Shown: positions 7,725-61,857 of the stretch, piece by piece
Numbering within the stretch: position 1 is the first letter of the stretch
Layout: every line of letters begins with the position of its first letter
Assembly (NCBI GenBank): GCA_017437285.1
Contig: JAFSBM010000037.1
Location: forward strand, 21,320 to 85,319
From: Ruminococcus sp.
GTDB lineage: Bacteria > Bacillota > Clostridia > Oscillospirales > Ruminococcaceae
Length of the DNA: 64,000 nucleotides
Direction of reading: 5' to 3'
Position numbers and translations under genes: made by a program
The notes under the pieces: model-generated
Database searches by the model: none
Told to the model about the DNA's origin: nothing
Seen by the model: only the letters and a program-made list of their open reading frames with translations

Positions 7725-7777
7725 TGTAATAATCTCCAATCAAAAATTTCCTTTTTACATCCGTTTATTTAAGTTAT

Positions 7778-7840
7778 GGGGTTCTCTAAAAACCGGAACA
7801 CGAGCGAAATCAAGCCATGATGGAGGTTTTTAGAGGTTCC
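7778..7840. repeat. 63-bp degenerate deletion derivative of the 158-bp MITE-like element
   Basis: GGGGTTCTCTAAAAACC ... GGTTTTTAGAGGTTCC. The left arm matches 14/16 nt of the TIR GGGCATCTCTAAAAAC, and AATCAA is shared next to the right arm. Confidence 0.4.
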
Positions 7841-7846
7841 ATTATA

Positions 7847-10279: not shown

Positions 10280-10520
10280 ATATGAAACTCAATGACTGAG
10301 AGAGTAGGCTGAAAATGAAGTCCACAGAGAGGAACACATTGGTGCGAGTGTTCTGACGGAGTATTGGCTGAAGTTCACTCACGAGAGGCAGAGTTGAATG
10401 CATATGCTGTGTAGGCTCTGACGTAAGTCTGCGTTATAGACAAGAGAGTGTCGGCTCTCCCGAAAATGGGTGGTATAGCAAGTTAGTCTTGTCCTGTTTG
10501 GGATGGGACTCTTTTTATTT
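10280..10520 (+). promoter_or_regulatory. T-box riboswitch leader with a Phe specifier
   Basis: AGAGA-type stem I elements. Specifier-loop GAAG-UUC-A has UUC at 10374-10376. T-box sequence AAAUGGGUGGUAUAGCA at 10464-10480. Terminator stem 10485-10494/10501-10510 is followed by CUUUUU. Confidence 0.8.
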
Positions 10521-11604: not shown

Positions 11605-12237
11605 ATGAAAAGGGCAAATAAAACAGTTATTATTTCAATAATACTTATAATAGTTACGATTATTCTAACCGTTCTTTTTCCTGACAGCGGAACTCCTGTC
11701 TTTATATTACTTTTAGTTTTTTTGATATTTCCATTTGTTACGAGAATAGTTAACGGAAATAAGAATCAAAAACTGGTTTATGAGCGTCTTGGAGTGTCAA
11801 CTAAGGAAGAATATTATCGGGCATTATCGGAATTTAATGAACTTATAGCAAACAGATTGTACATTAAGGACGATTTGATAATTAATATTAATTCTTACGA
11901 TATGTATTACATTAATGAAATTGTAAGTATTGAAAAAGTTAATCGTCGTCATTATTCCCGCTATGGTCATACGTATCGTAATATTTCATATGAACTTAAA
12001 ATTATAACAGATTCAATTATTGATACACTCAAATACGATACAAACGTATCAGGCCGTGACTGTGCATATCTGCTTTTGTCGAGAAAGCTGACAGAATTCA
12101 GACAAGATACAGCCGGTGATGTCTATGACGGCTTTGTAAGCAATGAAAAGGCTTATTCTATGGATGAATATGATGATATGATTATGGACGAAGAAGATAT
12201 AAAGGACAGAGAAAACAGAAGTGACTGGCTTGGTTAA
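11605..12237 (+). CDS. Cassette ORF A: 2-TM protein with a soluble C-terminal domain and acidic tail, function unknown
   Basis: 210 aa. Two hydrophobic helices (aa 7-26 and 31-49), then a ~120-aa domain and a DE-rich tail (MDEYDDMIMDEEDIKD). AT-rich codon usage unlike pheS. Confidence 0.6.
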   Translation: MKRANKTVIISIILIIVTIILTVLFPDSGTPVFILLLVFLIFPFVTRIVNGNKNQKLVYERLGVSTKEEYYRALSEFNELIANRLYIKDDLIININSYDMYYINEIVSIEKVNRRHYSRYGHTYRNISYELKIITDSIIDTLKYDTNVSGRDCAYLLLSRKLTEFRQDTAGDVYDGFVSNEKAYSMDEYDDMIMDEEDIKDRENRSDWLG

Positions 12238-12282
12238 AAGAGTAGCATATGACAATTTTAAATTATAAAAGAGGTGAAAATT

Positions 12283-13074
12283 ATGGATGATAAAAAGAAA
12301 AAAGCCATAGAGTTGCTTGTTGATTCCAGTATAGAAAATTTTGTAACTGGTTTAACATCACGTTATGAAAAAGAAGTTGATAGTGATTTTGGTGTTGTTA
12401 ATATGAAAAAGAATAACTGTTTTATTGCTGAACTGGGAGAAGAATTTATGTTCTATTCTGCCTTTGTTCGCAGTTTTGACAGTAGTTTCGGAAATGTTTT
12501 GGAAACATTGGGAAATAATATTGCAAAATTATCTTATGATGTAAGAGGAAATATTAATTCTTTTATGTTGCCGGACCAGACTCAAAGAATAGCTTCTATT
12601 CTTGATAGTTATGGTAAGCATACATCAACACCTGCAATTAGTCATTATGAAAATTTTGATGTAATTTACCCTAAAAATACTGTAAGTTTTCAAACAACTC
12701 ATGTAACTGATAATTATTTTTATAATCCTGATACAAATGAGCATTATCTCATTATGTTAAAATCTCTTGATAATTGTAATACACAACAAGTTTATCATGA
12801 TAAAGAAGAATTGCTTACTCAATTTTTTCTCTTGAAAAATTCACTAAGTAATGAGAATGAAATAAAAATATTATTGTTTTATTGTCTGCCTTTTGAAACC
12901 GAACTGAATAATAGCAACAATTTTATTCTTAATATATTTGAGCCTAATGAATTCTTATTAGGAAAACAATACTGGAATTTTGTTTGCGATGATAATAATG
13001 GTTATTCAATTGTATCTAATCAGGTGAAAAAATCAATAGAAAAGCACATTCTGAAAGTAGGTTTATATGACTAA
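12283..13074 (+). CDS. Cassette ORF B: restriction-endonuclease-like protein, possibly TdeIII-like (unverified)
   Basis: 263 aa from the ATG at 12283 (AAGAGG 8 nt upstream). The SFDSSFGNVLE, TD...YLIMLKS and LLGKQYWNFV segments resemble my recollection of the TdeIII type II REase family. No search was run. Confidence 0.5.
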   Translation: MDDKKKKAIELLVDSSIENFVTGLTSRYEKEVDSDFGVVNMKKNNCFIAELGEEFMFYSAFVRSFDSSFGNVLETLGNNIAKLSYDVRGNINSFMLPDQTQRIASILDSYGKHTSTPAISHYENFDVIYPKNTVSFQTTHVTDNYFYNPDTNEHYLIMLKSLDNCNTQQVYHDKEELLTQFFLLKNSLSNENEIKILLFYCLPFETELNNSNNFILNIFEPNEFLLGKQYWNFVCDDNNGYSIVSNQVKKSIEKHILKVGLYD

Positions 13075-13699
13075 AGTAGAAGCGATAGAAGCCTTAATGC
13101 ATGAATACAATGGGATAATAACTTTAGAAATAATATATAATGAAATAGAAAAGTATTATCCAAACGCTAAATCATCAAACGAGTGGAAATCAGGGCTTAG
13201 AGGTGTCTTATATAGGGAGTTAGGAAAGAAATTTAAACGAATTGATAAATCAATATATTCCCTTATAGATTATGATGAGCGTAATCTAATAGTTCCACAA
13301 AAAGACCTGTTGATTACAGAGCAAGAGGTATTATCCATTGTCAGAACACAACAGCAGAATTTTAGAAAAAAGCTTTTAAATCATCTGAATTTATGCCCTA
13401 TCACATTGATTAATGATAAAAGACTTTTAGTAGCGAGTCATATTAAGCCTTGGTGTTTATCAAATAATGATGAAAGAGTAGACATATATAATGGTTTTAT
13501 GTTGTCGCCACTTTATGATAAATTGTTTGATAGTGGCTTGATAACATTTACAGACCATAAAGAATTATTAGTATCTTCTTCTTTATCTGAAGATACAATA
13601 AAAAAGCTAAATATAAACACAGGTATTTATGATAAACTTCCAGTTAAAGGAAGAGAAAAATATCTGGAATTTCATAATGAAAAAATTTTTATAAAATAA
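13067..13699 (+). CDS. Cassette ORF C: HNH nuclease (HNH_2-type) with an N-terminal wHTH-like domain
   Basis: The motif ASHIKPW...NGFMLSPLYDKLFDSGLITF matches the HNH_2 pattern (H-I-x-P ... N-G ... H/Y-x-x-F-D). The ATG overlaps the ORF B stop by 8 nt (ATGACTAA). Confidence 0.7.
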   Translation: MTKVEAIEALMHEYNGIITLEIIYNEIEKYYPNAKSSNEWKSGLRGVLYRELGKKFKRIDKSIYSLIDYDERNLIVPQKDLLITEQEVLSIVRTQQQNFRKKLLNHLNLCPITLINDKRLLVASHIKPWCLSNNDERVDIYNGFMLSPLYDKLFDSGLITFTDHKELLVSSSLSEDTIKKLNINTGIYDKLPVKGREKYLEFHNEKIFIK

Positions 13700-16306: not shown

Positions 16307-16361
16307 TAATATATAGGATTTAGTTTATTTTTAATTTTGGGTTTAAGGCAATATTGCTATA

Positions 16362-16520
16362 GGGCATCTCTAAAAACCCCTTTTGAGAAAAAAACAGCTA
16401 TGCACGACATCTGCTGCGTCAACCTCCCTTGGAGTGCGAAAGCACGCCTTCGGAAGCTTTCCTTGCAGCTGCCGCACCTATCTGTTTTTTCTTTAATCAA
16501 ACGAGTTTTTAGAGATGCCC
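16362..16520 (+). mobile_element. MITE-like element, copy 1 (159 bp)
   Basis: Perfect 16-bp TIR GGGCATCTCTAAAAAC / GTTTTTAGAGATGCCC. Flanked by direct TATA/TATA. Near-identical to copies at 25948, 28113 and 49106. Confidence 0.65.
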
Positions 16521-16569
16521 TATACAATGTGATATGCCTTTATTTTGGATAATTAATGAGGTGTTAAAA

Positions 16570-25938: not shown

Positions 25939-25947
25939 TTAGATAAA

Positions 25948-26105
25948 GGGCATCTCTAAAAACCCCTTTTGAGAAAAAACATCTATGCACGTCATCTGCT
26001 TCGTCAACCTCCCTCGGAGTGCGGCAGCACGCCTTCGGAAGGTTTCCTTGCAGCTGTCATACCTATCTGTTTTTTCTTTAATCAAACGAGTTTTTAGAGA
26101 TGCCC
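25948..26105 (+). mobile_element. MITE-like element, copy 2 (158 bp)
   Basis: Same 16-bp TIRs, flanked by direct TAAA/TAAA. A few substitutions relative to copy 1. Confidence 0.65.
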
Positions 26106-26144
26106 TAAAGGAAATTTTCTTTTTTTGAGATTTTGGAGGTAATT

Positions 26145-28093: not shown

Positions 28094-28112
28094 GTTATGG
28101 AAAATATGATAA

Positions 28113-28271
28113 GGGCATCTCTAAAAACTCGTTTGATTAAAGAAAAAAACAGATAGGTGCGGCAACTGCAAGGAAACCTTCCGAAGGCGTGCTTTCGCAC
28201 TCCAAGGGAGGTTGACGAAGCAGATGACGTGCATAGCTGTTTTTTCTCAAAAGGGGTTTTTAGAGATGCCC
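28113..28271 (-). mobile_element. MITE-like element, copy 3 (159 bp, inverted orientation)
   Basis: Same TIRs. The flanks ATAA/TTAT are not a direct duplication. Its right end carries the ATG of the next gene. Confidence 0.6.
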
Positions 28272-28652
28272 TTATCTTTATGCGGTGACAATTGCAGTAA
28301 ATGTCCACGTTTTCTTGCACAGACAGATGAGGAACTAAAAGCAGTTGCGGAGTTATGGTTCAGAGTTGGTTGGAGGAATACCATAGTTTCTGTTGATGAA
28401 ATCCGCTGTAATGGCTGTACAGCGGACAAAAACTGCACATACGGTATTGTGAAATGCACAAAAGAACATGGTGTTGAAAAATGCAACCAATGCAAAATGT
28501 TCCCCTGCAATACCATAAAAAATATGCTCAGCCGTACAGAAATGTACAAGGAAATATGTCAAAAAGTCTGCACTACCGATGAATATGATCTTATTTCAGA
28601 GGCGTTTTTTAATAAATACGAAAATCTATGCAAAAAGGACGTTCAGTATTGA
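28266..28652 (+). CDS. DUF3795-like Cys-rich protein
   Basis: The MPLSLCGDNCSKCPRF start and later CNGC and CNQCKMFPC clusters fit the DUF3795 pattern. The track start at 28212 reads through repeat DNA. Confidence 0.6.
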   Translation: MPLSLCGDNCSKCPRFLAQTDEELKAVAELWFRVGWRNTIVSVDEIRCNGCTADKNCTYGIVKCTKEHGVEKCNQCKMFPCNTIKNMLSRTEMYKEICQKVCTTDEYDLISEAFFNKYENLCKKDVQY

Positions 28653-28671: not shown

Positions 28672-31113
28672 TTATTTAACAGGCAGAGAGGGGAGTAAAC
28701 CTGCATCGAGCATCTGAATACATATAGCATCATCGGGAGTAATGCCAATTTCACCGTTTACATCGGCATTTGTCATTCCCTGTTCTGAAAGCATATACTT
28801 ATCGGGATTGGCAATATACTGGAATATTGCAGCTGCATCAGCAATAGATACAATGCCGTCACAGTTGGAATCACCATAATTTACAGGGGATAGGGGAGGA
28901 GTTGTTGTTATTGGAGCTGTAGTTGTAACTGTAGTAGTTGTTGCAGTTGTCGTAGTTGTAGTGGTGGTGATAGTAGTCGTTGTTGTAAGACTTTCGGGGG
29001 ATACAGGCATAGCTATCCAATTCTGACAACTTGCTCCGTTAACCTCCCATTGCTGAACATTTGCACCGCTGTCCATTAACGCTGAGATAACCTCAACCGC
29101 AGATTTATTTCCGCTTATTTTTGTAAGAATTTTATATGAATTATCCTCATTCTTCACAAATCTGAACTGTTGGTTATCTCCCCCGTTTTGGGTGTAAAGT
29201 GCGATATTTGCACCATTATCAGATTTTTTAGCCTCTACGTCAAGAACAAATGTGCTGTTTTCATCAAGTGCCGTTGCAATGTAATAATAGCCATTTTCAG
29301 CCTCAATCAGCTTCCATACATCGTGAATATAATTTTCAGCTGTACCCCACTGATGTACATTTGAGCCGTTCTGTGCCTTTGCATTTTCAACCTGCATATA
29401 AAGTCCTGAATTAACATTCTTGAAACGGAATAAGGAGCCGTTTTCAAAAGTTTCGTAACTTGGTGCAGCAGGCTTCATTTCGCCGTCAGGCAATGCTGTA
29501 AAGCCTGCACTTGGCATACCTGGTGCGGAATATCTGATATACATCATATCCTTGTTGGAGTTTTTGCAGCCGCTGTTATATGTACAATAATTCTTTGCAT
29601 CATCTGCTGAAAGTGCCTTATATGCGTAATTTGAAGCAGGTCGCCAATTGCATACCTTTGCAGAACCCTCAATGCCTAATCTACGGCAGTTTACACCTTT
29701 TGAGCCTGAATCGGCAAATGAACCTGGGTGAGTTACCTCATTCCAATCGCATACTACATTTCCCTTTGTAGATGCACCGTCATAGTAGCAGCTTTCTGCG
29801 AAAAGCTTACAATCGGAATGAACTGTGTATGCCATACTGAAATTGTAGACAAAGTTATTGAGAGAGTGGAAATATCCATAACGCATAAGACCAGGGGCTC
29901 TTGTAAGAGTATCAGTAAATTTATTGCCTATAATAGACATTCTTGGGAAATTATTTTTGTTTTTGTAGGAATCCTCAGTATCATCGGGATAACCGAGAAT
30001 TAGTCCATATTCGTGAAGTCCGAATGAACAATCGGAAACTGTGCAGTAATCCGCATCATAGCAGCAAGCAAGGAATTTATCCCAGTCGGGAACATTTTCG
30101 CCCTGTGTATTTACTGCATTGTGTCCTACAAAAGTAACATGGTCAACCCATAAATTCTGACCTGAGCCAAAATAAACAACGATTGAGTCATTTCCGTTGG
30201 ATTTTGCATCGTGTTTCATCTCAAAATTTCTGATTATTACATTATTGCCAACGCCCTTATTTGATGATGTGCAGAACTGAACATTGCTGAGAGTATGCTT
30301 GCCATAGCTGCCAACAATTGTTTTATTGCTGCGAACATAAATTCTACCGTCGGGGCAGTAGAAATGATTCTGTGAATCCATTTTTAGCGTTGTAACTCCG
30401 ATATTTTCCTTAACAATAATTGTATAAGGAGTATCAGATTCAGCGTATTTTTTCAAATCGTCAAAAGTTGTTACCTCTACAACTTCACCGAATAAACCGC
30501 CGATATTTCCGGCTTTTATATTTTTTGTGTTATCATCAAAGCAATAACCTGCAAATCCCTGTAAACCGTCAGCATTTAAAAGCCACAACTGTGAATCTGC
30601 ACCTGTGAACTTTTGAAGTGTCATACCGTCAGAGCCTTGGGTAATAGCAAGTTCGGGGTCAGAATAGTTAACAATTTTATAATAAAGGTCATTTTTAAGT
30701 CGGTCCTGTTTGACAGGAACAACAAACCAATGCTGACACTGATGAGATTCGCTGCCAAACATAATTATGCTTGAACCTTCACTTACATTGTAATTATCGG
30801 GAGTTATAAGTCTGCCTGATTCACCATTGGTGATTTTGAAAAATGTTCCCACAGAATTTGCACCTACACGGTCAAATCGCCAAGTTCCAGAATGAGTTCC
30901 GTCAAGTTTTTTAACTGTTAATGATGAACCGTCGGTTGTCCCGTTTTCTGCAAGAACCTTAGAATTATCCTTGGTTGCAATGTTAATGAATTGTGCGGGA
31001 TAATCCACAGATGCGGCATTTGTAATCATCGTAACTGATGAAATATCAAATCCGCAGCAAATGAATGAAATGCACATAATCATTGCTGTAATAACTGAAA
31101 TAAATTTTTTCAT
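28672..31113 (-). CDS. PL1 pectate lyase with two ricin-type (CBM13-like) modules and a dockerin
   Basis: PL1 pattern NNVIIRNFEM...DSIVV...NLWVDHVTF and RAPGLMRYGYFHSLNNF. Q-x-W repeats (QHWF, SQLWLL, QQFRF, QNW). Thr linker and a C-terminal dockerin. Confidence 0.8.
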   Translation of the reverse strand: MKKFISVITAMIMCISFICCGFDISSVTMITNAASVDYPAQFINIATKDNSKVLAENGTTDGSSLTVKKLDGTHSGTWRFDRVGANSVGTFFKITNGESGRLITPDNYNVSEGSSIIMFGSESHQCQHWFVVPVKQDRLKNDLYYKIVNYSDPELAITQGSDGMTLQKFTGADSQLWLLNADGLQGFAGYCFDDNTKNIKAGNIGGLFGEVVEVTTFDDLKKYAESDTPYTIIVKENIGVTTLKMDSQNHFYCPDGRIYVRSNKTIVGSYGKHTLSNVQFCTSSNKGVGNNVIIRNFEMKHDAKSNGNDSIVVYFGSGQNLWVDHVTFVGHNAVNTQGENVPDWDKFLACCYDADYCTVSDCSFGLHEYGLILGYPDDTEDSYKNKNNFPRMSIIGNKFTDTLTRAPGLMRYGYFHSLNNFVYNFSMAYTVHSDCKLFAESCYYDGASTKGNVVCDWNEVTHPGSFADSGSKGVNCRRLGIEGSAKVCNWRPASNYAYKALSADDAKNYCTYNSGCKNSNKDMMYIRYSAPGMPSAGFTALPDGEMKPAAPSYETFENGSLFRFKNVNSGLYMQVENAKAQNGSNVHQWGTAENYIHDVWKLIEAENGYYYIATALDENSTFVLDVEAKKSDNGANIALYTQNGGDNQQFRFVKNEDNSYKILTKISGNKSAVEVISALMDSGANVQQWEVNGASCQNWIAMPVSPESLTTTTTITTTTTTTTATTTTVTTTAPITTTPPLSPVNYGDSNCDGIVSIADAAAIFQYIANPDKYMLSEQGMTNADVNGEIGITPDDAICIQMLDAGLLPSLPVK

Positions 31114-49027: not shown

Positions 49028-49105
49028 TATATACCGTAAAATTTAATTTTTATAGCTAATACAATTCATATTGCTCCCCCAATTAACTCTTGAATTTTCT
49101 ATTTT

Positions 49106-49263
49106 GGGCATCTCTAAAAACTCGTTTGATTAAAGAAAAAACAGATAGGTGCGGCAGCTGCAAGGAAAGCTTCCGAAGGCGTGCTTTCGCACTCCAAGGG
49201 AGGTTGACGCAGCAGATGTCGTGCATAGCTGTTTTTTCTCAAAAGGGGTTTTTAGAGATGCCC
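49106..49263 (-). mobile_element. MITE-like element, copy 4 (158 bp, inverted orientation)
   Basis: Same TIRs, flanked by direct TTTT/TTTT. By my hand alignment it differs from copy 1 only by one A in a poly-A run. Confidence 0.65.
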
Positions 49264-49390
49264 TTTTGCTTGGGGAGCAAAATTCAGCGTCAGAAATCCT
49301 CACAATACGACAGTATCATTTCGGCTTTCTTTCTTGCCTTCTGCTCCCCAAGCTTCATATAATTCTTCAAGAGTTAGTTGGCGGAGCAAT

Positions 49391-49433: not shown

Positions 49434-51197
49434 TTATTTCTCAGGAAGTGCGTCGATAAGCTTTGCATCAAATTTCTGAATTGCAATACCGTCAGCTACT
49501 GTTAAACCACTTCCCGGTTCGAAACAGTCAGCATTTACAGTGCCTTTCTCTGATAATGAATACTTGTCAGAGTTACCGATAGCCTGATAAATAGCCGCTG
49601 CATCGGCAATTGTAACAACTCCGTCGCAGTTTGCATCACCGTATACTACATCGCCTGAATCAGGTGTTGTTGTAGGCACAGTTGTAGGAGCTGTGGTTGG
49701 CTCTGTTTTAGGCTCGGTTGTTGGTGCTGTTGTAGGTGCTGTAGTCGGTTCAGTTGAAGGTTTAGTTGAAGGCTGAGTATTTCCGCTGTAATAGTCGCTG
49801 AGAGAAATACCTGTACCATTCTGTCCAAGTGGGATTTTATGGTCAAGGCTGATGAATAAGCCGTCATCTGTCTGCCACAGTGAAGGTTCAACAAATTCGT
49901 ACTTTTCCATATCCCATTCTGTCCAGTTGGTGCTGCCTGCAATAAGTCCGCCTGTATCACCTGAGTTTTCATTGAAGCACCAGAATGTATGGTGAATACG
50001 CTTCTCAATCATATAGTCACGGAGAAGTCCCATCCACTTTCTGTTATCACCTGTCGGGTCGTGTTCTGCATCAAGGAATCCGCCCCACTCACCCATAAGA
50101 AGCGGTGAAATCTTTTCCTCAACAAGGAATGCCCATGTATCATACCAGTAATCTTCAAGGAGTGTTTCACGGGTAAAGTCCTTCTTGAACCATTCCTGCT
50201 CCCAAACAAGCGGACCGTAGTCATGGGGAGAATATACAAGCTGGCTCTGATGTTCGCCTAAATCTACGGGGTAATCTCTTACACCACGGAAGTTACCGCC
50301 CCACCATGCACCATGGAAAGCCTGTGCACTTGGGTCGTCATAATGAGCATAATCAACAGCAGGGCTGTTCCAGTCCTTGCCGTTTTCAAATTTAGGATAA
50401 ACTTCAATACCCTCTACCATAAGAAGAAGATTCGGGTTTACTTCCATAATTGCGGCTGATGCTCTTTCAGCGGCGTATTTCCAGTTATTATCAGCAGTTG
50501 AATCATCCCAGATAGCCATACCCTGACCGTCATTCTTGCCGTGAGGCTCATTTTTCAGGTCAAGAGCAATAAGAGTATCGTCATCTTTATAGTAATCAGC
50601 AACCCATGTAAGTGCCTCAATCCAATCCTCATCGCTGTAATTGCTGTCATACCAAAGAGGATACTGGTGACCGTTTGAAGCTGTAGTTGCACAATGAATA
50701 TCAATCATAATCTTGATACCATTTTCTCTGCACCAGTCCACAGCCATATTCCAGATATCAAAGCTGTACTTTGGCTCACTTCCCTCAACGCCGTCAACTG
50801 AAAGCTCAGGGTTTGAATATGTATTGATTTTAACCATATATGGGTCAGGCTCTTGATTTTTCCACTGAAGAAGAATCTGAGTTGACATAGGTACACGGAG
50901 CAGGTTGAAGCCATGGTCTGCAATCTGATTCAGTGCATCGTGCATATTAAGGCTCCATACGCCGTCAAAACATTGTGTTGTAACATTGTAACCAAACCAG
51001 TTACAGCCTGTCAGCCATACAGGGTTGCCGTACATATCAACAATCTCGGCATTTTCATTAACGTGAAGCCAGTCGTCGTGATACTCGTCAGGTGCGGCAG
51101 TTGTAACTGTTTCCTTTGATATGCTGCCTGTTACAACTGTACAAAGCATAAGTGAAGCAGCAATTGTTGAAGCTGCTCTTTTGAAAATTTTTGCCAT
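49434..51197 (-). CDS. GH5 endoglucanase (cellulase) with a Pro/Thr linker and a dockerin
   Basis: Acid/base motif DLKNEPHG, nucleophile region MGEWGG, PT linker, and dockerin GDANCDGVVTIADAAAIYQ. Second ATG chosen because of RBS spacing. Confidence 0.85.
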   Translation of the reverse strand: MAKIFKRAASTIAASLMLCTVVTGSISKETVTTAAPDEYHDDWLHVNENAEIVDMYGNPVWLTGCNWFGYNVTTQCFDGVWSLNMHDALNQIADHGFNLLRVPMSTQILLQWKNQEPDPYMVKINTYSNPELSVDGVEGSEPKYSFDIWNMAVDWCRENGIKIMIDIHCATTASNGHQYPLWYDSNYSDEDWIEALTWVADYYKDDDTLIALDLKNEPHGKNDGQGMAIWDDSTADNNWKYAAERASAAIMEVNPNLLLMVEGIEVYPKFENGKDWNSPAVDYAHYDDPSAQAFHGAWWGGNFRGVRDYPVDLGEHQSQLVYSPHDYGPLVWEQEWFKKDFTRETLLEDYWYDTWAFLVEEKISPLLMGEWGGFLDAEHDPTGDNRKWMGLLRDYMIEKRIHHTFWCFNENSGDTGGLIAGSTNWTEWDMEKYEFVEPSLWQTDDGLFISLDHKIPLGQNGTGISLSDYYSGNTQPSTKPSTEPTTAPTTAPTTEPKTEPTTAPTTVPTTTPDSGDVVYGDANCDGVVTIADAAAIYQAIGNSDKYSLSEKGTVNADCFEPGSGLTVADGIAIQKFDAKLIDALPEK

Positions 51198-60008: not shown

Positions 60009-61857
60009 TAAGCTCTTCTCTTAAAAGGCACAAATCAAATACATCAATTTTACCGTCTTTGCAAAGGTCAGCTGCCTCGGAATTTTCAAGCTTTGCGTCG
60101 GAAACTCCCATAATCCAGTTTGTGAGAGATACAGCATCGGCAATTGTCATTTTGCCGTCACCGTTGGCATCACCTTTGACAAATTCGGGAACTACATCTT
60201 CTGTAGGCTTTTCAGTAGTTACTGTTGTAGTTTCTACTGTAGTCGCAGTTGTCGTTGTTGTAGATGATGCTGTAGTAGTAGTTGTTGTTGTTGTATCAAC
60301 TGTGGTAGTAGTTGTTGCTGTGGTAGTCTGTGGAATTTCTTCCTCGATAACTTCAAACTTTCTATTGTATTTTTCAGCGTATGCCTGTGCTGTTGAGCCT
60401 GCATAGCCGTGAATTACAACTGATTTGTCAATGGGTTCTTCGGGTTCTTCAACTGTTTCGCCTGCAACATCTCCCCAGACAGAGGTGATAACTCCGTCAT
60501 TCTCTAAATCGGGCATCTTTTCTTTTATTTTAAATTCAGCAGGAATTGTCTTTTCAGAGTCGAAAATATCACAATCCTTGTCATAGATGTATATATCGCT
60601 TGTACTCTTTGCACCTTTGAGTGTATCCTCATTTATGTAGGATGCTCTGTAGTGAATTTTATTCGTTACATCATTGGTACCGAGAAAGAACGCATCACAT
60701 ACATATGTTACGGATTCGGGGAAATCCACAAGTTCAATATTGCATCGCATCAGAAATGCCCACTCTGCAACACCAACTGTTCCCTCTGCAAATACGGCAT
60801 TTACAATATCTTCTTCACTATCTACAGCCCAGTTATCAACGTAGTGTATGCCGTCCTTAACTTCGATACAGCCCGATTCTGCAAATGCACTAGCACCGAT
60901 ATAGGTAACAGAATCGGGAATATCAAATTCGGTAAGAGATGTACATTCACCAAATGCACCTATACCAATTGCGGAAATATCGCCGTTGAACTTCACATCT
61001 GAAAGAGATTCGCACATATAAAATGTATCCATATGAACAGCATTGATACTTTCGGGAAGTTCAATACTTTCAAGATTTATACAAGCGACAAATGCTGCAT
61101 TATTTATCTGCTTGATATTTTCGGGAATTACCAAATCTTTCAGCTTATAGCAGGTTGCAAAGGCATAGTCGTTGATAATCTCAGCCTTTTCGGAAATTAT
61201 CAGCTCCGTTAAATCCATAGCAGGCGGACAACCGATAACTTTTTTCATATCCTTTGAATAAAGAAGTCCGTCAGATACTGTAAAATAAGGGTTTGTTTCT
61301 GATACTTTTATTTCAGTAACGCTTGGATAAATTATATCTTCATCTGTATTTTCATCTGCCATAATTGTTACATTTGAGGGATTAAATGTTGTTTCTTCGT
61401 CTATTTCTGTAAGCTGAGTGTTTACAGATACAGTATGTGAACCTGATGAACCACTTGAAACTGTGGTTACAATGCATACAAGATCCAACCAGTCAAAATA
61501 CTGCATACTGTCGGGGAGCGTTATGCTTTTAAGATTTCGGCAATATCCAAAGGGTGTGCCGTCAACTCCTACCACGGGTACACCGTTTATTTCAGCAGGA
61601 ATTTCAACTTCTTCGGCTTCAAGGTTTGAAAAATCGGTAAGAAATGCAAAATCCGCATAAACATTAAATGTAAAATCGCCCTCGGTAACTTTCTTATGTG
61701 TAGCTTCAAGGTCAGGCTTTTCAGCGTCTTCTTCCTCACTCTGCTCACTTAAATCCCTGAAGCTTATTGTGTTAAGAGCATTGGCGGTTGGTGTGTAAAT
61801 GTTTGCAACCGAGCCAATAAGCGTAATTGCGGCTAAAAATGCAGTTAATCTTTTCAT
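60001..61857 (-). CDS. Secreted BspA-type LRR protein with a Thr linker and a dockerin
   Basis: Signal peptide, many LRR_5-like repeats (IPENIKQINNAAFVACINLESIELP), a Thr-rich linker, and dockerin GDANGDGKMTIADAVSL ... KDGKIDVFDL. Confidence 0.75.
   Translation of the reverse strand: MKRLTAFLAAITLIGSVANIYTPTANALNTISFRDLSEQSEEEDAEKPDLEATHKKVTEGDFTFNVYADFAFLTDFSNLEAEEVEIPAEINGVPVVGVDGTPFGYCRNLKSITLPDSMQYFDWLDLVCIVTTVSSGSSGSHTVSVNTQLTEIDEETTFNPSNVTIMADENTDEDIIYPSVTEIKVSETNPYFTVSDGLLYSKDMKKVIGCPPAMDLTELIISEKAEIINDYAFATCYKLKDLVIPENIKQINNAAFVACINLESIELPESINAVHMDTFYMCESLSDVKFNGDISAIGIGAFGECTSLTEFDIPDSVTYIGASAFAESGCIEVKDGIHYVDNWAVDSEEDIVNAVFAEGTVGVAEWAFLMRCNIELVDFPESVTYVCDAFFLGTNDVTNKIHYRASYINEDTLKGAKSTSDIYIYDKDCDIFDSEKTIPAEFKIKEKMPDLENDGVITSVWGDVAGETVEEPEEPIDKSVVIHGYAGSTAQAYAEKYNRKFEVIEEEIPQTTTATTTTTVDTTTTTTTTASSTTTTTATTVETTTVTTEKPTEDVVPEFVKGDANGDGKMTIADAVSLTNWIMGVSDAKLENSEAADLCKDGKIDVFDLCLLREELIK

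Follow-up and report, generated by a model that had tools for sequence, protein, structure and literature searches.

Among hairpin-forming repeats, Correia elements (CREE/NEMIS, from Neisseria), RUP, and ERIC are about 100–160 bp long and combine inverted ends with a hairpin that spans the full length of the element. Hairpin MITEs of the Correia type insert between genes and into 5′ leaders, and influence neighbouring transcripts. Correia elements themselves have 26-nt ends and a TA duplication and, to our knowledge, no cognate transposase is evident in their host. PIF/Harbinger, the eukaryotic relative of IS5, mobilises Tourist-type MITEs, which have solely their ends in common with the transposase element, target A/T-rich sites, and carry a 3-bp TAA/TTA duplication. 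REP/BIME repeats are short (about 20–40 nt) imperfect palindromes that are often clustered and have no target duplication.

IS5-family-associated MITEs include BrickBuilt, MITE239/464, and MITE293/700 of Porphyromonas gingivalis as well as ATR of Neisseria, which are short, non-coding and have only their ends in common with an IS (PMC4596501). The ends of the P. gingivalis MITEs match IS5-family ISPg elements, and the same ends are found in Neisseria ISNme1 (PMC4596501). Here we report on a family of 158–159 bp repeats with four copies in the window (the whole 64-kb stretch of Ruminococcus DNA that was analysed), and we consider it highly probable that the element is an IS5-type non-autonomous MITE, mobilised in trans by an IS5-family DDE transposase. 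This type of element is well known; on sequence grounds, its identical ends and equal duplication length link it here to one particular clade of the IS5 family. The family is not named in a large census of prokaryotic MITEs (PMC11602168), and its end, in either orientation and as either variant, was absent from the searchable full-text literature.

The 16-mer GGGCATCTCTAAAAAC had eight exact occurrences in the 64-kb window, arranged as four inward-facing pairs (starting at 16362/16505, 25948/26090, 28113/28256, and 49106/49248). With up to three mismatches allowed, ten matches were obtained in the window versus 0.66 expected, a number reached in 0 of 100 shuffles; the two extra matches are the boundaries of a 64-bp mini element. 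The elements are located as follows:

16362..16520, + strand: MITE copy 1, 159 bp, with a TATA duplication at 16358–16361 and 16521–16524
25948..26105, + strand: MITE copy 2, 158 bp, with a TAAA duplication at 25944–25947 and 26106–26109
28113..28271, − strand: MITE copy 3, 159 bp, with left flank ATAA at 28109–28112 and extra TTAT at 28272–28275 on the right
49106..49263, − strand: MITE copy 4, 158 bp, with a TTTT duplication at 49102–49105 and 49264–49267
7778..7841, no strand assigned: mini element of 64 bp, with related ends GGGGTTCTCTAAAAAC and TGGAACCTCTAAAAAC

Alignment, blastn, and nhmmer placed exactly four full-length copies in the window, and blastn and profile search returned no additional full or partial copies there. 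The four units aligned end to end, with similarity ceasing exactly at the ends, and the 16-nt inverted ends were perfect in 4/4 copies. Identity to copy 1 was 99.4% for copy 4, 96.3% for copy 3, and 93.1% for copy 2. A first-pass annotation of this DNA had described four copies of 158–159 bp with 16-bp inverted termini, and our comparisons bear this out at the coordinates above (93–99% identity and four perfect inward-facing pairs). Its finer observations were likewise confirmed in the alignment, in that copies 1 and 4 differ solely by one A in a poly-A run, copies 2 and 3 share the few substitutions that it listed, and the flanks read TATA/TATA, TAAA/TAAA, and TTTT/TTTT, with ATAA/TTAT at copy 3. 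It had also argued that the poly-A indel breaks the reading frames and that no conserved peptide is encoded; single-base indels in homopolymer runs between copies indeed disrupt every frame, leaving the copies without coding capacity. Each copy consists of two 16-nt inverted ends around a G+C-rich core, and similarity to IS ends reaches ~22–24 nt. The mini element, situated between a 204-aa ORF and an NAD(P)H-hydrate repair gene, has a perfect TTAT/TTAT duplication (7774–7777 and 7842–7845) and a relative with 93% identity in another Ruminococcus genome (L085 7092–7148).

Our check of copy number, empty sites, and duplications in relatives' genomes and metagenome contigs returned consistent termini, a fixed 4-bp duplication, and two empty sites. 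Specifically, of the distinct full-length copies whose flanks could be read (44, drawn from the window and from about 19 genomes of Ruminococcus/Oscillospiraceae among the matches listed), 32 were flanked by a perfect 4-bp direct repeat and 12 were not. Perfect repeats of 3, 5, and 6 bp numbered 4, 2, and 0 in the same 44 copies, a shifted control gave 0, and permutation of the right flanks yielded on average 4.0 perfect 4-bp repeats, and at most 11, over 2000 trials. The duplicated tetranucleotides were nearly all composed of A/T (TATA, TAAA, ATAA/TTAT, TTAA, and others). An exact empty site for copy 4 was found in L109, which is 98.2–98.4% identical to the window over 5.75 kb and reads AAAA once at the position where the window reads AAAA, the 158-bp element, and AAAA. 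Exact empty sites for copy 3 were present in L217 and L218 (97–98% identical to the window, with an intact DUF3795 start), which read ATGGAAAATATGATAA joined to CTTTATGCGG where the window has the 159-bp copy plus four bases. Flanks were identical at the junctions of both polymorphic insertions. For copies 1 and 2, the search for empty sites yielded solely filled alleles or contigs that break within the element. Together, these comparisons show direct evidence that the family moved recently in this rumen Ruminococcus, and once into a gene start. Copies 2 and 3, which are inverted around GH16 and GNAT genes, were also considered as a composite transposon; this was rejected because copy 2 is flanked by a TAAA duplication of its own, the outer flanks are unmatched, and the empty allele of copy 3 keeps the GNAT–DUF3795 arrangement.

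A search for IS with the same terminal repeats returned IS5-family elements with 4-bp duplications, namely L065, L018, and 38 further full copies, and none in the Ruminococcus loci (~8 kb each). In a Cyclobacteriaceae MAG (L065 5975–7226), the same ends bound a 1252-bp element with a single 346-aa transposase ORF, which matched NCBIfam NF033581 (IS5 family; IS5_4) at 1e-80 and 271 bits (cut-off 140), and also Pfam DDE_Tnp_1 (PF01609) and the N-terminal DUF772 (PF05598). The IMG/VR contig L018 (8379–9681) carried a 1303-bp element with the same left end, a TTAA duplication, and a transposase 50% identical to that of L065. A profile from these two transposases recovered thousands of relatives, the named ones being Bacteroidales, and 80 metagenome loci encoding relatives 49–97% identical were fetched. 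The 38 further IS copies measured 1222–1348 bp, in a clade that spans about 1.22–1.35 kb as a whole, and a perfect 4-bp duplication flanked 13 of them (TTAA in 10 of the 13); the full-length IS favour TTAA, and the MITE uses a wider variety of targets. Their end consensus was GGGCA(T/C)CTCTAAAAAC; across 76 ends most positions did not vary, and the T/C variation at position 6 also separates MITE subfamilies, of which there are at least two among 49 distinct copies (ends GGGCATCTC and GGGCACCTC).

In the Bacteroidota MAG JAJUGZ01, at least 16 contigs terminate ~136 nt inside one IS end (L040, L050, L055, L059, L062, L066, L070, L074, L080, L083, L093–L096, L103, and L105). The first 23 nt of this IS are the same as one MITE end, its flanks are A/T tetranucleotides like those of the MITE, and the element is a high-copy IS that fragments the assembly. 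The autonomous copies that we recovered were apparently all from Bacteroidota or unassigned environmental contigs, and the clade is abundant in Bacteroidota. Unrelated cores of 51, 85–88, 108, and 130 bp carried the same ends in genomes labelled Bacteroidota and in one labelled Bdellovibrio, and the IS clade has thus produced MITEs repeatedly. When the sub-terminal sequence of the MITE was compared with 125 IS ends, similarity did not extend past ~16–24 nt and no parent IS could be named. Judged on these 125 ends, the MITE is not a simple internal deletion of an IS, as its core is unrelated to the IS and solely the ends are common to both.

The first-pass annotation had also stated that no transposase lies in the window, which holds within the scope of our searches: tblastn of the 64-kb window returned no match to the cognate IS5 transposase, and family scans of window ORFs (8 with NCBIfam and 25 with Pfam) gave no transposase family. 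A weak IstB_IS21 P-loop match on a PhoH-like window protein is not a transposase match. The Ruminococcus loci, each covering ~8 kb around a copy, gave no transposase of the clade, and the viral, phage, and plasmid collections contained no IS of the clade linked to Ruminococcus, with four IS matches in viral contigs. We propose that the MITE ends would be recognition sites for an IS5-family DDE transposase provided in trans, which would bind GGGCAYCTCTAAAAAC, excise the element, and paste it into A/T-only tetranucleotides (TATA, TAAA, ATAA/TTAT, or TTAA), with repair of a 4-nt staggered target cut giving rise to the 4-bp flanking duplication. From the sequences we infer cut-and-paste chemistry and the presence, now or recently, of a transposase of this clade in the Ruminococcus host. 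Copies 1 and 4 are one base apart and two insertions are polymorphic at 2–3% divergence, so a transposase must have been on hand not long ago. The MITE-like, non-autonomous character that had been proposed for the element is therefore supported by its termini, the 4-bp duplication, the empty sites, the IS5-family ends, and the lack of an Rfam match. Side effects on the host would depend on the landing sites, which lie in 5′ leaders, between genes and, in one case, within the first codons of a gene.

With regard to the host region, the genes of the window include pheST, preceded by a T-box leader, a number of housekeeping and aminoacyl-tRNA synthetase genes, and dockerin-bearing glycoside hydrolases (GH43, GH16, and GH5) together with a pectate lyase. 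Metagenome contigs carry proteins identical to those of the window, and its close DNA relatives, among the matches listed, are all Ruminococcus MAGs, from rumen, caecum, and faeces. The T-box leader upstream of pheS (10283–10499) scored 104.9 bits against a gathering score of 93 in Rfam 15 and was the only feature across the window to pass. Between pheS and pheT, three genes are wedged into a low-G+C stretch (0.30; 11605–13699). One is an ORF of 210 aa that matches no family, another encodes a HinfI-like restriction endonuclease (PF09520), and the third encodes an HNH_2 protein (PF13391); none was recognised as a methyltransferase gene. Repeats within genes were observed at 28906–28987 and 60223–60322, and at 28835–28888, 49600–49653, and 60134–60187. 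These look like coding sequence for Thr-rich linkers and dockerin-type repeats common to cellulosomal proteins, and are unrelated to the MITE.

Copy 1 is located 49 nt upstream of the start of the GH43-dockerin gene (16570), downstream of the pheT terminator and of a promoter-like site (TTGACA-17-TAAAAT), and it probably lies in the leader of the GH43 gene given this position. Copy 2 occupies the divergent region between the UDPGP gene (− strand) and the GH16-dockerin gene (+ strand), and ends 27 nt ahead of the GH16 reading frame. Copy 4, between the terminator of the GH5 gene and the promoter-like site of an LRR_5 gene, looks neutral in effect. All copies had been described as intergenic, and this stands for copies 1, 2, and 4, but not for copy 3, which interrupts a DUF3795 gene behind its fifth codon. 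The two parts of that gene are as follows:

28097..28112, + strand: orphaned native DUF3795 start, ATGGAAAATATGATAA (MENMI), severed from the remainder of the gene by copy 3
28266..28652, + strand: DUF3795 restart frame, whose ATG falls within the inverted end on the right of copy 3 (GAGATGCCC)

An SD-like AAAGGGG is found 9 nt upstream of the restart ATG, and the predicted product would begin MPLSLCGD versus the native MENMITLCGD, with which DUF3795 homologues start (one of them 96% identical). The terminal ATG of the element thus appears to rescue the DUF3795 reading frame. Gene callers place the start at 28224, still deeper inside the element, and the filled allele is present on several metagenome contigs. 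When compared with the empty site, the four bases added at copy 3 (TTAT) are the reverse complement of the left-flank ATAA rather than a direct repeat. Inverted flanks of this kind were also seen at L027 (TAAA/TTTA) and L034 (TTAT/ATAA), and three such cases are close to chance expectation. At copy 3, a template switch may have carried the palindrome on into the flank once a normal ATAA duplication had formed.

Each copy of the element folds as a single long hairpin, and the fold of copy 1 had z-scores of −6.1 and −8.4 on the two strands. Over the 59-pair hairpin, changes on both sides were observed at 15 pairs, versus 9.6 in column shuffles and 2–8 in slid-partner controls, and compensated cells numbered 81 versus 27.8; RNAalifold agreed on the main helices. 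For all 49 copies, folding was more stable in the reverse complement of the alignment orientation (mean of −80.7 versus −64.1 kcal/mol), and canonical or wobble cells made up 96.2% on the reverse-complement strand versus 89.4% on the other. Nine high-frequency non-Watson-Crick states (alignment columns 6/157, 18/146, 23/142, 26/138, 43/116, 44/115, 47/112, 48/111, and 66/94) were all G.U on the better-folding strand (C.A on the other) and never reversed. In addition, the stem is preceded by an A6 run and followed by a T6 run, a layout that resembles a bidirectional terminator. These features would be consistent with an element whose main role is that of a regulatory hairpin or a structured RNA (for example a small RNA, a mobile terminator, or an element for mRNA stability), with its fold under selection and transposition serving only as the means of spread. 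We consider this explanation unlikely. A match to a structured RNA family would have pointed towards it, but no Rfam 15 family reached threshold on the element, and the best hit, MIR9486, is a generic match to a long hairpin that stays far under threshold (31.6 bits versus a gathering score of 100). A scan for the terminator consensus does not call the element, and copy 1 has a promoter-like site on one side and the GH43 gene, which is intact, on the other, a placement that speaks against strong termination. Where flanking genes are co-oriented, the transcript would carry the weaker-folding orientation in 15 cases versus 6 (binomial p ~0.08, not significant; counted from the ORF table, with the context of copy 3 corrected from gene calls). 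Rare variants showed no strand bias, and template switching from arm to arm in a palindrome can yield compensated changes without selection. The strand asymmetry could stem from selection, in the multiplying copies, on an RNA or single-stranded DNA form, from avoidance of strong transcript hairpins, or from a founder effect.

A further speculation, to which we give a small chance, is that the hairpin core of the MITE, rather than being inert filler, is a strand-specific RNA or single-stranded DNA module, selected in the proliferating copies and mobilised by a transposase clade that is otherwise of Bacteroidota. If so, what the element disperses through cellulolytic Ruminococcus genomes would be a functional hairpin, accompanied now and then by a ribosome-binding site and a start codon, and its mobilisation by a clade otherwise seen in Bacteroidota would make it dependent on a transposase acquired across phyla, for example via phage or plasmid.

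The distribution of the family was examined by scanning one genome per species with the end plus six sub-terminal bases as query, which gave at least 88 stretches. Using blastn with copy 1, full-length copies at 84–99% identity were detected in at least 19 or so species-level genomes, labelled Ruminococcus, Oscillospiraceae, Clostridia, and Ca. Ornithomonoglobus among the matches listed. After deduplication, there were at least 49 distinct full-length copies (those of the window counted), with the 16-nt ends conserved in the 49, and one MAG carried at least 17. JAZQFV01 is one of the relatives rich in copies. Shorter versions of 88–125 bp without the hairpin tip were also found (L038 729–816, L108 1699–1788, L026 1711–1806, L034 3995–4094, and L027 4897–5021), and the isolate R. 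flavefaciens FD-1 has one 96-bp derivative. The loss of the tip was roughly symmetrical in these deletion derivatives, as palindrome instability would predict. Contigs assembled from short reads of this organism repeatedly start or stop within the MITE (L110–L118 and L212–L216), in line with a multi-copy repeat longer than the k-mer of the assembler; as a result, gene neighbourhoods around the copies are systematically truncated.

Two apparent exceptions were rejected. A full-length copy in an ‘Alistipes’ MAG (L069; JAMPAJ010000001.1) is not a cross-phylum copy, as its neighbours, read from translated ORFs, are recJ and genes for a SigE-like sporulation sigma factor and a SpoIIGA-like protease (G+C 45–53%), which indicates a clostridial scaffold and an incorrect taxonomic label or bin. 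In L084, ends 1470 bp apart do not form a full IS and are instead two separate MITEs around Hsp20 and small membrane-protein genes. A phage collection gave no match to the IS clade or the MITE, and one partial MITE was seen in a viral contig (L016). The sole match in a plasmid collection was a 60-nt stretch of R. albus 7 pRUMAL02 (268450–268509; L206 1501–1560), which is 80% identical to core positions 46–106 (E = 7e-5), has no inverted ends, and sits with a P4-family primase gene on one side and small ORFs on the other. This stretch may be a source of the MITE core or a chance match.

The cognate transposase was found neither in the window nor in the Ruminococcus loci (~8 kb each), and this, along with several deletion derivatives and truncated copies, would fit immobile relics of an extinct IS that are kept by descent and no longer transpose in this lineage. 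We regard this explanation as very unlikely, considering that copies 1 and 4 are nearly identical, that the two polymorphic insertions separate strains only 2–3% diverged and have identical junction flanks, and that a single MAG carries so many copies. REP/BIME-like or other palindromic repeats, spread via a route other than DDE chemistry (a RAYT/Y1 transposase or recombination), would also be palindromic, mostly intergenic, and multi-copy, but such an origin is exceedingly improbable as it is contradicted by the fixed 4-bp duplication, the precise empty sites, and the ends identical to those of DDE IS5-family elements, and the 158-bp units are dispersed singly, with no REP-like short unit and no clustered arrays.

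As an IS5-type MITE, the family accounts for a 158-bp repeat that recurs in Ruminococcus genomes of the rumen and gut, for metagenome assembly breaks at fixed points in these organisms, and for at least one gene call (DUF3795) that starts inside the repeat. It is a clean and recent example of such a MITE active in uncultured cellulolytic Clostridia, and it leaves knowledge of how MITEs work unchanged. Because copies are found directly upstream of cellulosomal glycoside hydrolase genes, filled and empty alleles could serve as natural expression experiments. The 16-nt end, conserved at transposase identities down to 49% and reused by unrelated cores across phyla, can be used as a search key for the IS clade.

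When compared with known systems, Tourist-type MITEs differ from this family in their eukaryotic hosts and unrelated ends, and Correia elements, RUP, and ERIC are unrelated in sequence and differ in their hosts and transposase families. The InsH protein of IS5 itself shows 25% identity to the cognate transposase over 91% of the length. The closest named relatives are IS1168 and IS1169 (Bacteroides; annotated plasmids), with transposases ~48–50% identical to that of L018 over 93–96% of the length, a size of about 1.3 kb, and ends of a similar type (GGGGACTTCTATAAAT and GAGGAGTTCTATAAAT). However, both are autonomous, their ends differ from GGGCATCTCTAAAAAC at about 5–6 of 16 positions, and they are not the actual partner of the MITE. 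The P. gingivalis and Neisseria MITEs have ends GAGACCTTTGCA, variable or absent duplications, tandem repeats in some cases, and a cognate IS in the same genomes, whereas the present family has a clean 4-bp duplication, and no in-host IS was found in the window and the ~8-kb Ruminococcus loci. Nonetheless, in both cases the core is unrelated to the transposase gene and identical IS5-type ends cross phyla, here between Clostridia and Bacteroidota.
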